48,438 nucleotides of DNA, taken from the NCBI GenBank assembly GCA_049999805.1, contig JBNGIO010002947.1, positions 1 through 48,438 of the forward strand, written 5' to 3'. The notes beneath the pieces were generated by a model. It was not told the origin of the DNA. It worked only from the letters and a program-made list of their open reading frames with translations, and did not search any database. The DNA is from Folioceros fuciformis. Its lineage: Eukaryota. Shown piece after piece: positions 1 through 7,404 of this stretch. Made by a program: the position numbers and the translations under genes. The stretch's first letter is position 1; each line of letters opens with the position of its first letter.

Positions 1-399
1 CCATTGTGCATTGTATTATAAGTGGCTCGCTTTTTTGATGGTTTAAGAAGATTAGTGAAGAACAGGTTTCTCAAGAATGATAAGGTTTCGCACTTAATGT
101 CTTCTTTGAAATTAAAAAAATCAAAGAGCTCAGGAAACTTGAGAAATTGTGTTCATGTGCAGTCAAGTAAGCATTGACAAAATATTGGCTTAATTTTTGT
201 AAAATTGTGGAGAATATTGATGACCCATTAATCCATTCCATCCTTGTGTTTAGAAAAACCAAAGCCCCTTTGTCTTCTTTGGATAGGAAAGTTTTCCTTT
301 CTTATGACCTTTTACACGGACAATATTCTTTGTAGTTTACTAGCTAAAAGAATTGTGCATTGTGCCAATCTTGGCTACAACCTTTGTCCTCTTGATATT

Positions 400-500
400 G
401 GTTTTTAGGGCTTACTTAGGGTTTCTTTAGGGCTTATTCAGGGCTGGTTTAGGACTTATTTAGGGATTCCTTTAGGGTTTATTTAGGGCTTCGTTAGGGC
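400..500 (+). repeat. Degenerate ~11-bp tandem repeat (consensus ~CTTATTTAGGG) containing telomere-like TTTAGGG/TTAGGG cores
   Basis: About 9 imperfect units: gtttttaggg cttacttaggg tttctttaggg cttattcaggg ctggtttagga cttatttaggg ... Confidence 0.7.
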
Positions 501-1015
501 ATATCTTATCACCAGCTAGCATGGCTGGCAGCCACTACTAGCTATGTATATAGTTTTATTATAGATTTACTTAGTACATAATGCCTGGTGGCCTTACCAA
601 GGGCCTCACGAGGCTCCACTACAGCAGAGCACTTGTTGCCAGCCACACTACGGACCCCATATTGTTCGATATCAAAAGCCTAGCAAGCCAAGCACACACA
701 AGACCGTTTCTTTTGCCGATACTAACAAACCCTTAAGAAATCGAAATTAATTCCAAAACCTGCACCAATCTTGAACGTATAATATGTGTGGACAGAGGTC
801 TAAGCGTATTCTCCTCAGGTGGCGAGGTCTACCAGAACTGTGATCACCGACGCGTTGGCGTACTAGCAAGCGCCTGCCTTCCTGCCTCCCTCCCTGCCTG
901 GAGGACGTCGCAAGTAGCAGAGCGAGTGGTGTAGGGCGCAAGCGCCTTTGCGCATTGCGTTGCCGGCGGGGTGGCGCACTCGCCCGCAAGCAGGGGCAGC
1001 CGCAGGGCAGGGCAG

Positions 1016-2548
1016 ATGAGCATGGCGGGCAACGGGGGAGGCGCAGCACAGTATCTGCAACACCTGCCCTCTAGGGGCTACTTCTCCACCTGCGTCCCCT
1101 CCTCCACTCCCGTACGTGTGCAGCAATCCTACCCTACCTTCCCCTTCCCCTTCCCTTGCGCTGGCCCTGGCCATGTCCCTGCCCGGGCCTTGTCCCTTCC
1201 TCACGCCGGTCCGCTTGTTGTGTCTGCTCGTTTGCTGTGTCTGCGGGTTGCAGATTGGATGTCCTGAGCGTGCGGTTCCGCAAATTTGGTGTGTCTGGTG
1301 GTGTCCTGTTGTGATGGAGCCGGTTCTCCGTCTGCCGGCCGTGTGTCGGACTGGATGCGGTGTGGATGGATGGCTGGCACGGGCTCGCTCGCAGATTATC
1401 GGTAGTTGGAATCCGCTTATTCTGTGAGCACTTGGTTGTGAGAATACCGTGAGACCGGATGTTGGAGATTCAGGAGGAGGATCATGCCGATCTCTAGGGA
1501 GAGTGCATGTCTAGGGTTGGGTATGGTCTCTTAGGGCTCGAATCCATAGCTCTAGAGATAATGAAAGTTCCGCCCCTGTTGCCTATGAACACAGTGGTCA
1601 TTGAAGCGTTGTAGACGGGTTTCATCCTCGGTCCGTTGTGTGGCAGGGGGGCCTGCGGGTGTACGTTTGCGACCATGACACTGCTCCACCAGGTTGGATG
1701 TGCGATTCGGGGTCATTTACGACTGATCGGCCTTGTAGTGGCTTGTGGTTGACGGTCTAAATTGTTACTTGGTGTTGCAGACGAGCAGCTCATAAGGACT
1801 GATGCCACAAACATTTTGATCAGAGCGCTGACATTGAAGAAAGGAAGAAGCGACCAGAAAGGAAAGGAAGGCAAAGCCAAGGCCTCCGCGGAAGATGGCA
1901 AAGGCAAGAGGTAGGCTCGTTATTCTTGGCATGAGCTATCATGTACTCTTCTTCTCCTACGTGCCATAAGATGTTTCACCTGTTGTGGTGCTCGCACCCG
2001 TTTTGATGTTTCTCTCATTGTCTGTGCAGGCCTGCCGAAGGGCATAGTGATGAGAAAAATCCATCCAAAAGAGCAAATACAGGGTCTAGGAAAGGTGATT
2101 AAGCAATGCCCTTCGTGTATTTTATTTTGTAGGTCCCTGTTTGTTCGTAATGGAGTATCGAAGCTAATGATAGGAACGGACTGTGTGTGTCTCTGCTACA
2201 ACCATGTGGATCCCTGGGCTCTCCTGAGCCCAATTGTTGCTTATTGAAATATTTTTTTGTCACTTTTGAGCTGATCAGAGGTTGACTGGTGTACCTGTGA
2301 GCTTTCCCATTCTTTCAGAGGCTGCATCGAGTCGACCCTCTGACAGGGAGCTACAAAGTTACACAGTAGAGAAACTGAAACAGTTGTTGAAAGAAAAGGG
2401 TCAGCCAGTAAAGGGGAAGAAGGTAGCCCACTCCATCCTGTCTGAATTGCCTTTGGTTTTCCATCAAGTCCGGTTTCAACTTTACATCATTGTGCTCTTC
2501 CTTACTGTTCAGGATGAACTCATCACACGCCTAAAGCGGCATTTATGA
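1016..2548 (+). CDS. Small protein with a DDA1-like N-terminal region and a C-terminal SAP domain (6 exons)
   Basis: Exons 1016/1022-1111, 1647-1692, 1781-1910, 2030-2094, 2319-2422, 2513-2548, all GT-AG and phase-compatible. Translation: [55 protein letters not shown] ... [31 protein letters not shown] (SAP consensus). Confidence 0.8.
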
Positions 2549-4250
2549 CTATACATTGGTTTGGTCGCTGGAAGGTTCTGCTATTTTGTTGGATCAAGTG
2601 ACCTCAGCTGGCGTAAGTCAAATTTGGTGACTGTACATACAAGCAGAGCGTGCTCCTCAGTTCGAGATGTCTGAGAGATGGCAGTACCCCATGGAGTCTT
2701 TCCATTTACAGGGATTTCTAGGGCACTCTGCCGGACGTGTTTCATGATAGTAGTGTTGTTACCAGGGAGGCTCTCAAGGGATGAAACCACACGCTGCTGC
2801 CACGCAGTTCGTTCATGTTTGACTGCTAGATGGTCTTCCAGGTCTAAAGTTACGTGTACATCAAACTTGACAGGGCTAGAGACTTCAGTGTATCTGCGAC
2901 TGTTCTAACACATTGAGTTCATTTTAACCTCTGGTGGCAGTAAGGATTGCCACCAACTACACTACATAACGGTACTTGCAAAGGAGACCGCGCGTGTGTT
3001 CTCGATTCCCGGCGTTCGAGGTGTTGATGTGGACACCACTTTGTACTTCTTCCGAACGTGATGTTGAGAGCTATGTATCCGGTAACGTTTTTGTGGTACT
3101 GCTCCACTGCTGGGCTTGGTGGCTGCTAAAGAGGTATGTGTTTGCCCAGGAAAAGCAACCTTACCTTAAGCAATGCGCAGAGGAGCCGGCGGGTGCAGAT
3201 TGTTCCAACATGGTTTTGTGCTGTGCATTGCCGACGTCGATCGGCTGGAGGATCTCTGCTACGTGCATTTTCTTGGAGGCACGCGACAGAATGTGCCTCT
3301 AAGGCTTTGTCTTTGTTAAACATCGATTCACGCGGGGATTGCGGCCTGCCTCCGACAAGTACCGGACCACAATCGCTCGGCACAATGAATCACGCCTTCT
3401 TTTAGATATGTAGAATCGCGATCCAATGCGAGACTCCTGGTCAGACGTGACGACTGAGAGCACCAGCCTGGCTACTCACACTTGCGTCTTCACCAGGATT
3501 CCAACCGTCTGTAGCAGCCCGCGATCAGAGTCGACCAGGACTCAGCATGCCTTCATGCACGGACAAGCCTTGGAAATATGACCGCTCAACATGCTGTAGC
3601 ACACAGTCTCGCTCTCCGTCGCATTCTGTATACACGTACGTGCTTTCTTCGCCAGGCGGGGAACTGGAGCCAGATTCTGTTTTCAATCAGAACGTTCCAT
3701 TCTTAGACGACTTGGGAAACGTAACGATGGCGGCTATGGCGACACCGACTTCCCGATTTGAGATTTTGAATTCAAAGAGACATTTCTGGCTGCCGAGTTG
3801 CCGAATGCCCTGGAACTAAACTACAAATTCGTTTACTTACCAACGTCATCACTACTGGCTTGATGTTTCACTATCCCTCCTAAGGAGACCTGATCGCTAC
3901 CTGACCTGGCAGTATACGATCTTCTTGAAGCTGGTCTTTCTGGTGGGGGCGTGGGACGTGTGGATCTTGTGAACGAGCTCCTGGACAGATGCGAACGTGT
4001 TCGGGAATGGTGGCAGGAGGAGCTCTCCACGACATTCGAAATCAGGCCTGGGGATTGCTCGTTTGGCTGGGGTGCTTGCAGACTGTGCCAAGGCGTGCAA
4101 ATCAAATCATGTGACTGACTGGCCTCTTCAAGAACTGAATACAAGGACGGGGAATATGATGACAGGGGCAGCATGCTGTTGTTAGGTATGCGGTGCGTGC
4201 CCATGGTGAGCTGTGCGGCCTGAGGTCTTGAAGCAGCGTCTTGTATATTT

Positions 4251-5456
4251 ATGGTGTGGCGAGGTGAATTCGTAGTAATCGTCATGGAATCGTGGATCGA
4301 GCAATTGCGCCTCACTTGGAAGGCTGCCCGTGAAGCCTTGCCTGTTGCTCAGGGGTACAGCGCTTACAAATTAGAGATGTTATTACACTCCCCGAGCTCT
4401 TCGAGCTGGGCTGTTTCGACGCACAGGTTACATGCAATCGTCCAGGAAGTCCTTGGGCCAGACGTGTTTCCGGGCCAAGCTGCGTTGAAAGAACTGCGAC
4501 AGTGTTCTGACATTGCACAATCTACCGGCTGCATTTGCACGGATACGTTGAACCAATTATTTGCAACACAATGGAATGTGGTTCCCACGGCACTAGATCT
4601 AGAGCATGATCCTGGCCCCAGTTTTGAGGATTATAGCAATTCTATGATGCTGGAGCTAGAGTCTTCAAATTTTCCCTTGTCTACGGAAAGCGCAGACCCA
4701 ACGGCTTACGGCGATATGGAGCCGGTTGCCGTTGAGCAAGCGCCTGGAACGCTCTCTCTGGACAATCTCACACAGACAGTAGCCGGGGAGAAATGGCAGG
4801 TGTCGGAGCCCGAACCCGCCACAGAAGCCGGGGAGAAATGGCAGATGTCGGAGGCCGAGATCGCCGCAGAAGCCGGGGAGAAACGGCAGATGTCGGAGCC
4901 CGAGCCCGAGCCCGAGCCCGCCGAAGACCTCCCACTGACGCAGCCACCTTACATTACTACCCATACGTTTCCCTGGGAAGGTGCAATTGATGACGTGGAT
5001 CTGGAGCAGCAACATGGTTCTCCAGGCCATTCTACAGATGATGAGCCGATTAAGGTTCCAGTGACGGGAGACAGTTGCCCTGGACCGATTCACAGCCCCG
5101 TTGGTGATTCATTTCCTGTTGTTGCAGATGGCAAGCTTGGTGATTCACAGTCCACAGCTCATAGCGACTCTTCTGATTCATGGTCTACAGCTTGTAGCCA
5201 GTTTTCTGGTTCATGGTTTCAGCTAGATGACGGATCTCCATGTTCATGGTCTACAGCTGATGGCGAGCCTTCTGATTCATGGTCCGTATCACAAGACAGC
5301 GAGGCTTCTGGTCTCCTGTCTTCATGCTCTAGACAGGACAGCGAGTCTTCTGTTGAAATTGACAGCGAGACTTATGTGTCATGTGAATCATGTGTGGATA
5401 GCGAGTCTTCTGATTCGCAGTCCGGCTCGGATGACACCGAACATTCGTTTCTTTGA
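4251..5456 (+). CDS. Unknown acidic/Ser-rich protein with internal repeats (orphan; 5' end uncertain)
   Basis: Uninterrupted 401-aa ORF with three AGEK(W/R)Q(V/M)SE repeats and S(W/E)S-type repeats. No family recognised. Confidence 0.4.
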   Translation: MVWRGEFVVIVMESWIEQLRLTWKAAREALPVAQGYSAYKLEMLLHSPSSSSWAVSTHRLHAIVQEVLGPDVFPGQAALKELRQCSDIAQSTGCICTDTLNQLFATQWNVVPTALDLEHDPGPSFEDYSNSMMLELESSNFPLSTESADPTAYGDMEPVAVEQAPGTLSLDNLTQTVAGEKWQVSEPEPATEAGEKWQMSEAEIAAEAGEKRQMSEPEPEPEPAEDLPLTQPPYITTHTFPWEGAIDDVDLEQQHGSPGHSTDDEPIKVPVTGDSCPGPIHSPVGDSFPVVADGKLGDSQSTAHSDSSDSWSTACSQFSGSWFQLDDGSPCSWSTADGEPSDSWSVSQDSEASGLLSSCSRQDSESSVEIDSETYVSCESCVDSESSDSQSGSDDTEHSFL

Positions 5457-6121
5457 CATAGCCAATTACTTGAAGGCAGGAGACATCATTGAATTGGCAT
5501 TTGAATTGGATGAAGCATCACCATTGGTGAATCGGTTAGGAACCAATTGGAAATGACGCATATTACATTCTTCCACAAGCGTTACATACAAGACTCAATT
5601 TATCATCCACTAGCTTAAAATTTCCTGACTGATTTTGAAATCGTTAAGAGTAGTTTTTTTGAAGACAACATAATAAACTATTTCATATATATGTGCATTT
5701 CTTTTTCCATAAGCAACTAAATCTTCGTCTGCGGGCTTTTTTAAATCTTCATATCCTTTAAATTTTCAGAGATGACGAAATCCATACTTTGTGATAGCCT
5801 GGTTACGAATAAAAAATAGGAGGCATGGAAACGACATGGGTTTGTAGTGGTCGCTGCCGGGACAAGCTCGGGTGCAGTGGTGCCAGCTTTCTCATAATGC
5901 GCTCTGAAGATGCTAAAGATGGAAAGACTTTCCCAGCTTAAAAAACCACAAAGCCATTACTGCTCCGAAGCTGTGGACAAGTGGAGAATGGGGTACGGAA
6001 AGCTCATAGAATCTGGCCCATCTGGGAAATTTGTGTCCAGGAGGATGATTTACAAAGAGAGCACTGTACAAGCACATGTCCAGCGGAGGAAGGGAAACAG
6101 GTCTGCCAAGTTGCCGAACCG

Positions 6122-7404
6122 CTACTCTTCTTTGGGGAAGACGGGCAAGTCCTCCTCAAACCATGTTCGAAGACCGTTGTCAAGGTGCAGGATGTTGGTG
6201 TATCCGTCCAGGGTCAGCAGATAAGCAGCGATCAATGACCTGCGCAAAACAAAGGTACCATGTGTCCCATAAGCAAGCAGTGCAGAAGCAGGGACCAATC
6301 CTGAGACGCGCCTCTATCCTGCCTGCCTGCCTGACTGCCTGCCTTACCTGGACTGGACTCCATCTGTTAGATTTGGACTCGGCTTCAATGTACCGCCAGA
6401 TGCACAAACAACAATGATCTTGGCATCCTTGCCCAACTTGGCGTTCACTTCTGCCAATCAAAACCACATCAGGGACATGAGAAGGAGTCAGGGAAATACC
6501 TTGATTCTTTGCCCTCTGCCAGGGCTGGCGTGGCTTTTGTGGTTCCGCCCATGTCGCAGGCGACAATGAGCGGCGACTCCTTGGAGAACTTTGCATTAGT
6601 CTCTGATGAGAGAACATGGCACATCATTTCATGTGCCTTTCCTTTCATCAGCCCTGCCCGGGCCCGGCCTCTTGGGCTTGTGTGTATATGTTGCGTGTAA
6701 ATGAATGGCTGCAGATGGCATACCTTTGACGAAGTCTGGATTTTCCTCTGTGCCTTCGAAGATTCCGAAAAAGGCAAAGGCAGCACGGCGGGCGATGTCC
6801 CATGCAGTCCACTCTTTGATCAGCCGGTACACTTGCACGTTCACTGCACCCTCGGGATGGGACTGAGCAAATGCCCCTTCCGGCCTAACATCCAGAAGGG
6901 TGTACCCTTGCTCTTGCGTCAGTCTGAATGCTTCCTTGGCTCGCACAGACCGCACCTGGCCAGCATCCGGAGACGTGAAAAATGCTGCTCTCCGGTGCAG
7001 AGGCGCAAAATTGTAACCAAAATGCAATTACCAACCTTGTTCTTCAGCAGAGCTTCCCGCTTCGTTCGCCACTCTGTCTCGGCTGCCGAAAATGCACACG
7101 GACCACGTCAGGGAACAACGAGCTTGCCGAAATTCAGGGTCATCCACACATATCGTCCTCGCCGAAGCTCACCAGGGGACTTGGCAGGGCCTGCCGCAAT
7201 GGCAGCCACATGAAGAGGTCGCCAAGGGGCCCGCACGCTGCTGTCCCTCCTGCTGGTCAGCTGCCTTGAGCAGAAGCCTCTGGACACGGGGGGCAACAGA
7301 GAGGAGGAAGCTGCAGCGGCAGGGGAAGCAGAAAGGGCGGAATGGGAACTGGCCAAAGCTGCAGCAGACTGGAGCGTGGCTGAATGCACGGCCGAGAATG
7401 CCAT
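6122..7404 (-). CDS. STR14: Rhodanese-like domain protein 14, chloroplastic, with two alternative copies of exon 4
   Basis: Exons 7404-7173, 7082-7036, 6955-6724, [6602-6500 OR 6450-6348], 6239-6122. Transit peptide followed by LLDVRPE...YRLIKEWTAWDIARRAAFAFFGIFEGTEENPDF...SRSLIAAYLL...HLDNGL, matching recalled plant STR14 sequence. Confidence 0.9.

Follow-up and report, generated by a model that had tools for sequence, protein, structure and literature searches.

Two tandem homologous exons for the catalytic-cysteine loop of an STR14-type rhodanese gene

The window, a stretch of DNA of 48,438 nucleotides, carries on its minus strand a rhodanese gene in which two homologous exons of equal length lie side by side. 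The question raised by this locus is whether one gene can produce two enzymes that differ in their catalytic loop by the choice of one exon or the other, as the initial annotation had proposed. The identity of the gene, the borders and coding content of the two exons, their divergence, their use in assembled transcripts and their distribution among land plants were therefore analyzed.

A search with exon 3 (P0002) gave 468 protein matches, and the best 120 of these were plant proteins. Among these best 120, the top named matches were annotated as "rhodanese-like domain-containing protein 14, chloroplastic" and showed 71-80% identity to exon 3. No protein more than 80% identical to exon 3 was found in the protein collection searched, so that neither the organism nor its near relatives are represented in it. 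Exon 3 alone scored 26.1 bits against the Pfam Rhodanese family (PF00581), for which the cut-off is 22.2 bits, and the B isoform of Marchantia scored 50.3 bits. The name STR14, which had been given to the gene from its sequence, was thus borne out by its nearest named relatives and by the Pfam cut-off. In a tree of B isoforms, the window gene was placed with Sphagnum fallax and two further sequences (93/89), apart from Marchantia. Judged by its sequence, the gene is an STR14-type single-domain rhodanese gene of a non-vascular land plant. AtStr14 appears in a table of PMC4618214 as At4g27700, a single-domain sulfurtransferase/rhodanese. The literature searched gave no biochemical role for STR14 itself.

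Reading of the strand between 5400 and 7800 showed that the gene consists of five exons and one extra exon on the minus strand (Table 1). Contigs of four runs (X1 to X4), none of which is recorded as RNA, were compared with the window at 80% likeness. X1 is from the same organism (0.45 share of window words), X2 and X3 are from relatives, and X4 is from organism D. The X1 contig had no differences from the window and was spliced at every intron. The joint between exons 2 and 3 was given by the contigs as 6953 to 7034, and the cut was moved by +2 to 6955 to 7036. The N-terminal extension encoded by exon 1 is rich in Ala and Ser and is presumed to be a transit peptide. Apart from the spacer between the two homologous exons, the introns of the gene are 90, 80, 121, and 108 nt in length. 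The 3' UTR reaches at least 5900, since the X1 contig covers 5900-6242. The pieces 6351-6450 and 5900-6242 adjoin in this contig, and 6311-6350 was left out as a repeat, for which reason the 6348/6239 joint does not appear among the joints reported for the contigs. A short tandem repeat rich in GGCA/GGCAGTCA occupies window positions 6311-6350 on the minus strand and begins at the donor of exon B.

Table 1. Features of the STR14-type rhodanese gene in the window
Feature	Position	Strand	Description
Exon 1	7173..7404	-	ATG at 7404-7402; joint 7082 to 7173 in the spliced X1 contig; frame checked
Exon 2	7036..7082	-	47 nt; joints 7082 to 7173 and 6955 to 7036 in X1, X2, and X3
Exon 3	6724..6955	-	232 nt; first half of the rhodanese domain and the STR14-specific invariant stretch; phase 1 end
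Intron 5' of exon A	6603..6723	-	121 nt, GT..AG
Exon A	6500..6602	-	103 nt; upstream, diverged copy of the Cys-loop exon; loop motif CDMGGT, ends EGKES-R
Spacer between exons A and B	6451..6499	-	49 nt, GT..AG
Exon B	6348..6450	-	103 nt; canonical Cys-loop exon; loop motif CASGGT
Intron between exon B and the last exon	6240..6347	-	108 nt; short GGCA-rich repeat at its start
Last exon, coding part	6122..6239	-	Helix after the loop (SLIAAYLL...); stop TAG at 6124-6122

The description of the exon pair in the initial annotation proved to be accurate. The coordinates of the two 103-nt exons on the minus strand were confirmed to the base, and the translations of the 33 internal codons of each exon agreed with those reported. 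The borders, which had been called clean, read cag/AG ... AAG/gtat in exon A and cag/AA ... CAG/gtaagg in exon B. Both exons enter in phase 1 and leave in phase 2, and they fit exon 3, which ends at 6724, and the last exon, which starts at 6239. The spacer is about half as long as the local introns (80-121 nt), and inclusion of both exons does shift the frame, the resulting A+B mRNA being 835 nt in length and out of frame. An mRNA with neither exon (629 nt) is also out of frame. The A-only and B-only mRNAs are 732 nt each, corresponding to 243 codons and a stop. Because 103 is not a multiple of three, only one of the two exons can be present in a productive mRNA. The pair shares with mutually exclusive exons the equal length, the same phase, canonical splice sites, homology, and an unproductive outcome when both or neither are included. 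In the A+B form, the stop is located at nt 775, in the last exon, and the last junction is at 717. In a form that retains the spacer, an in-frame stop occurs within the spacer itself, far 5' of the last junction. A stop more than approximately 50 nt 5' of the last junction, the criterion for a poison exon, is therefore present only in the spacer-retaining form and not in the A+B form. Since the A+B stop falls in the last exon, decay of the double-inclusion mRNA offers no obvious safeguard in the window gene.

To what part of the enzyme the exon pair corresponds was examined by alignment and modelling. When the Marchantia B isoform was aligned to PDB 1tq1, the strand, the Cys, the x-x-G-G, and the R-S motif of a canonical rhodanese were recognized, and a 14-residue insertion was found to split the motif of STR14 between G-G and R-S. 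The Cys at column 16, which aligns with the Cys of PDB 1tq1, is present in both exons of the pair and in each of the 71 distinct B-type exons. An AlphaFold2 model of the Marchantia B isoform, obtained from a 45-row alignment, had a mean pLDDT of 63.9, with values of 80-95 in the domain blocks. In this model, a strand at residues 185-190 ends in the Cys, the loop at 193-205 is of low confidence, and a helix starts at 209. Encoded in the 35 codons of the exon are therefore the last part of one helix, the strand with the catalytic Cys, the whole loop including the insertion, and the Arg at which the following helix starts. The alignment to PDB 1tq1 and the AlphaFold2 model thus agree that the catalytic Cys loop is encoded in the swapped exon, as had been stated for this locus. 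Because the exon extends from the strand to the helix-opening Arg, an exchange of the exons amounts to an exchange of the entire active-site loop. Outside this exon, residues 142-168 of the Marchantia protein P0032, which correspond approximately to 6830-6750 in exon 3 of the window, showed pLDDT values under 50. They include an STR14-specific stretch, W146...F163, that is invariant across 45 land-plant sequences. The combination of conservation with poor folding in the model suggests that this stretch may be a partner-binding or membrane-contacting element.

The peptides encoded by exons A and B were identical at 15 of 33 residues (E value of 2e-10 in a single BLASTP comparison). The numbers of identical bases at the first, second, and third codon positions were 21, 23, and 9, respectively, each out of 33. 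The difference between the first and second positions taken together (44 of 66) and the third position (9 of 33) was significant by Fisher's test (p = 2.7e-4). The pS value was 0.757, which indicates saturation, and the pN value was 0.368. The saturation of the third positions and the retention of the first and second positions indicate that the duplication is old and that both copies have evolved as coding sequence. In addition, since two-thirds of the first and second positions have been kept, neither copy can have drifted neutrally for most of the time since the duplication. Exon A retains the Cys, GGT, and the closing S-R, and it has a conserved set of changes of its own, namely Pro in place of the Lys that precedes the strand, a Met within the loop, and Glu instead of the invariant Gln. 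Exon B retains the residues that are invariant in land-plant STR14. The view that both exons have been maintained despite their strong divergence is therefore upheld by the coding-type divergence and the saturated third positions, and also by an A-type orthologue in Marchantia, which is described below.

The use of the two exons was determined from the assembled contigs. In the X1 contig, 6724 was joined directly to 6450. The contigs of X2 and X3 had the same joint between 6450 and 6724, and exon A was skipped in both. Exon B is the default exon. Of the junctions expected if both exons were used, the one between 6724 and 6450 was present in X1, X2, and X3, and none that involves exon A was seen in this check of contigs. 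No A-only mRNA was observed in the spliced contigs of X1 to X3, in which minor isoforms are dropped, or in the Marchantia models. The proposal that one gene makes two enzymes through a splicing switch has thus not been supported so far, because X1, X2, and X3 all skip exon A and the Marchantia models with an A-type exon also carry exon B. A second, more diverged STR14-like contig of 970 nt was present in X3 (organism C, record 4), matching window positions 6726-6863 and 7186-7224. It showed 23 differences in 138 positions and a depth of 64.6 versus 26.9, and downstream of exon 3, from 6725 on, its sequence was unlike that of the window. This contig may represent a paralogue or another organism in the run.

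A counterpart of the exon pair was found in Marchantia polymorpha. Mp3g12160 (MARPO_0050s0021; MPTK1/MPTK2_3g12160) contains an A-type exon upstream of a B-type exon. An A-type segment was present in one of the best 120 of the 468 STR14 homologues, M. polymorpha P0031, and also in its cluster mates P0127 and P0126. P0031 and P0127 are 215 amino acids in length, and P0126 is 232. Four residues shared by the A exons of the window and Marchantia, P11, M18, A27, and E33, occur in none of the 71 distinct B-type exons, and two more, F6 and K32, are common to both A exons and rare in B. Three of the A-specific changes fall at positions that show little or no variation in B (K/R11, N/S/T27, and Q33). 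P24, which is invariant in B, is changed in both A exons, to different residues. Among the 16 columns where both A exons depart from the B consensus, the same residue is found in 8. The B exons of the window and Marchantia were identical at 25 of 35 positions. The arrangement of the exons and the A-specific residues are common to both lineages, and the duplication probably predates the split between the window lineage and Marchantia.

All three Marchantia models, P0031, P0127, and P0126, join exon 3 to exon A in frame, which shows that the junction between exon 3 and exon A was recognized in the Marchantia annotation evidence. As decoded from the protein models, P0031 and P0127 have exon A spliced to exon B out of frame and end in GERKAG-stop, and the premature stop in Marchantia falls near the start of exon B. 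P0126 is longer than P0031 by 17 residues, which follow the A exon in frame. These residues begin with R-Y, as expected from AG/GTAY, and end with C-R, as expected from YAG/A, and they can be read as a retained spacer of 51 nt, in comparison with 49 nt in the window. P0126 as decoded would accordingly consist of exon A, the retained spacer, and exon B out of frame, with the same tail as in P0031 and P0127. No Marchantia model contains the A exon without exon B; three of three hold exon B and a premature stop. Mp3g12160 thus resembles the window gene in its family, in the position of A upstream of B, in the spacer of about 50 nt, and in the A-specific residues. It differs in that its proteins have been deposited as "hypothetical protein" or "Rhodanese domain-containing protein" and its A-containing models are truncated. 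No published mention of Mp3g12160 was found in the literature searched.

In order to describe the distribution of the A-type exon, metagenome contigs were scanned with an exon-3 profile, and 61 loci were obtained. In 48 of these loci, exon 3 could be followed to its end and a loop exon was present; each had exactly one loop exon, always of the B type. Six of the 48 were spliced (transcript-like), 36 had an intron of 80-137 nt, which leaves no room for another exon, and six had an intron of 874-875 nt. Hence, all 42 genomic STR14 loci, which come from seed plants, a fern-like plant, and a Sphagnum-like moss, had the B-type exon only, with no A-type exon. The seed-plant-like loci had an intron of 80-96 nt at the place of exon A, with no room for a second exon; the Arabidopsis-like loci L005 and L006, with an intron of 92-93 nt, likewise showed none. 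The loop exon of the six Sphagnum-like loci (L011-L016) was identical to that of Sphagnum fallax P0043. The intron between exon 3 and the loop exon in these six loci is ten times as long as in the 36 other genomic loci. Within it, a search for a second loop exon gave a best local score of 28-31, compared with a 95% null level of 34-35, and the frame was rich in stops. The remaining 13 of the 61 loci gave no loop-exon match of at least 30 bits. In ten of them, which were alga-like, exon 3 ran on without interruption into a loop of weak similarity; the other three had no loop-exon match whatever. Its absence from all 42 genomic metagenome loci indicates that the A-type exon is dispensable in most land plants.

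Word-based protein searches for further A-type exons returned only the Marchantia cluster. The queries were the Marchantia tail (one candidate) and a profile of both A exons (one match among 115 candidates), with the 51-residue frame that runs through exon A used in place of the short exon itself. An exhaustive phmmer search with the 33-residue exon A gave eight matches, all but one of more than 800 residues; two of them were read and consisted of ankyrin-type repeats, and the eight were taken as chance matches. This search is underpowered at 33 residues and isoforms had been merged by clustering at 50%, so that it is silent on absence. The A exon is known so far only from the window organism, a partial DNA contig of organism D, and Marchantia. 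In the STR14 models P0099, P0100, P0103, and P0105 of Triticeae, the loop exon is replaced by an unrelated segment of 35 residues, exactly equal in length, which sits between the end of exon 3 and SLIAAY. P0104, P0075, and P0084, also of Triticeae, have a normal B-type segment. The unrelated segment may result from an error of annotation, or it may be an alternative exon of another kind.

From these results, the exon pair is real and ancient, and it is conserved at the protein level. The explanation that we prefer is that the Cys-loop exon was duplicated in tandem long ago, before the split from the Marchantia lineage, and that both copies have since been kept as coding sequence, with B as the default. 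A minor or condition-specific A-only mRNA, which we infer, would then give a second enzyme with a different catalytic loop. We consider it an even chance that the two exons are genuinely mutually exclusive, with A as the minor or conditional choice. A broader proposal is made tentatively and is held with rather less conviction. It states that the pair is an ancient splicing switch, several hundred million years old, which is present in a liverwort and in a second deep non-vascular lineage and was lost in Sphagnum and vascular plants. Such a switch would swap the complete catalytic Cys loop of a chloroplast rhodanese together with its family-specific insertion, it would be enforced by the spacer of about 50 nt, and its products would be two enzymes with different substrate or partner preference.

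Mutual exclusion of the two exons could be achieved by a steric block. The best branch-point-like site in the spacer, ctgAt, would place the branch-point A at about 6469, 30 nt from the donor of exon A and 18 nt from the acceptor of exon B. So short a distance between the exon A donor and the probable branch point for exon B, some 30 nt, would hinder splicing from A to B. In alpha-tropomyosin exons 2 and 3, the first exon's donor and the second exon's branch point lie too near each other, and this is the mechanism proposed here for the window gene. The spacer is close to 50 nt in both lineages (49 and 51 nt), whereas the other introns differ in length. Neither an unusual RNA fold of the region nor a selector-docking pairing stood out (z 0.06). 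Since the RNA fold is ordinary, spacing rather than RNA pairing remains the candidate mechanism. On the other hand, if P0031 is based on real reads, a 51-nt spacer can be spliced, and the steric argument becomes weaker.

The skipping of exon A in the contigs and the truncated Marchantia models bear on two other explanations. Exon A might be a conserved unproductive (regulatory or "poison") exon, whose inclusion with exon B or with the spacer leads to a premature stop and lowers the amount of the B-type enzyme. This is consistent with the three of three Marchantia A models that also hold B and end prematurely, with the assembled window transcripts that use B alone, and with the stop that a retained 49-nt spacer would bring well 5' of the last junction. 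However, such an exon needs only its splice sites and a frame shift, and the pattern of saturated third and conserved first and second codon positions, the retained Cys, GGT, and S-R, and the A-specific residues shared with Marchantia are left unexplained; the A+B stop, which occurs only in the last exon, would also make a poor target for decay. We regard a poison function as unlikely, but it is the strongest of the rival explanations. The same contigs, X1, X2, and X3, all of which bridge across exon A and none of which holds it, would also be expected if exon A were a relic, that is, an alternative that once worked, is now unspliced in the window organism, and has not yet decayed. The outright loss of the exon from other land-plant lineages also fits with this. 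Against it, the frame of exon A is open and both of its splice sites are intact. A weak counterpoint is given by organism D, in which a DNA contig (X4) over 6525-6654 showed 10 differences in 130 positions and no gaps, whereas the other two X4 contigs over the gene were gapped (101 differences and 18 gaps in 889 positions; 21 differences and 9 gaps in 198). A relic seems to us quite unlikely.

The likeness between the two A exons could also have arisen by convergence or long-branch attraction after independent duplications in the two lineages, in which case the pair in the window would be lineage-specific. In a maximum-likelihood tree of 73 loop-exon peptides, the A exons of the window and Marchantia formed a clade with support of 98/94. 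A tree in which A and B of the window were held together was not rejected by the AU test (delta lnL 8.28, p-AU 0.318), and the two long A branches, compared over 35 columns, could attract each other. Moreover, exon A of the window was identical to Marchantia A at 17 of 35 positions, the same number as to exon B of the window. These observations would agree with separate origins. They have to be set against the four common residues that are absent from all 71 distinct B exons, the two that are rare there, the same order with A upstream, the spacers of 49 and 51 nt, and the grouping of the A exons in the free tree. Even with separate origins, the saturated third positions would still make the duplication in the window old and constrained. 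We therefore consider independent duplication to be highly improbable, and the single early duplication remains the reading that we prefer.

How homologous mutually exclusive exons let animals exchange a single structural element of a protein is well understood, and tandem-duplicated examples include alpha-tropomyosin exons 2/3, pyruvate kinase M exons 9/10, CaV1.2 exons 8/8a, and the Dscam clusters. The pair in the window is similar to these in its equal exon length, equal phase, and recognizable homology, and in that one structural element within a domain would be swapped. In contrast to the animal cases, in which both exons are documented in mature mRNAs and are used in a tissue-specific manner, exon B alone is documented for the window gene. 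The Kassiopeia database (PMC3923563) presents predicted mutually exclusive exons of Arabidopsis thaliana, and plant mutually exclusive exons have so far been mostly predictions of this kind. Length, frame, splice sites, and similarity, the criteria described there, are the same as those applied in this study. The Kassiopeia entries are predictions from a single genome, whereas the pair in the window is common to two deeply separated lineages. AtStr14 (At4g27700) belongs to the orthologous family; like the window gene, it has a loop exon of the B type, and the insertion that separates the Cys loop from the helix is the same.

A published description of the exon pair was not found in the literature searched. 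The pair is unusual in that it lies on the catalytic loop of an enzyme, in that both copies carry a signature of long-term selection at the protein level, and in that it is common, its spacer length included, to two lineages that parted early in the evolution of land plants. If the switch is true, few homologous mutually exclusive exon pairs known in plants would be as old or as well defined. If an A-only mRNA exists, Marchantia and its kin would provide a tractable system for mutual exclusion enforced by the spliceosome in plants, and a way to ask what the poorly understood STR14 does with two active-site loops. If it does not exist, exon A would be an alternative exon whose coding sequence has outlived its visible use.

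Two further observations concern the surroundings of the gene. On the plus strand, an open frame of 410 residues at 4224-5456 runs towards the rhodanese gene and faces its 3' end. Its product would be acidic and rich in Ser, with three occurrences of the motif AGEK-x-Q-x-SE. On the other side, the spliced X1 contig (record 1), which is 5763 nt in length, continues for approximately 4.5 kb upstream of 7600 into the neighbouring minus-strand gene or genes. Such an extension is expected for a compact genome and is not proof of a single transcript.
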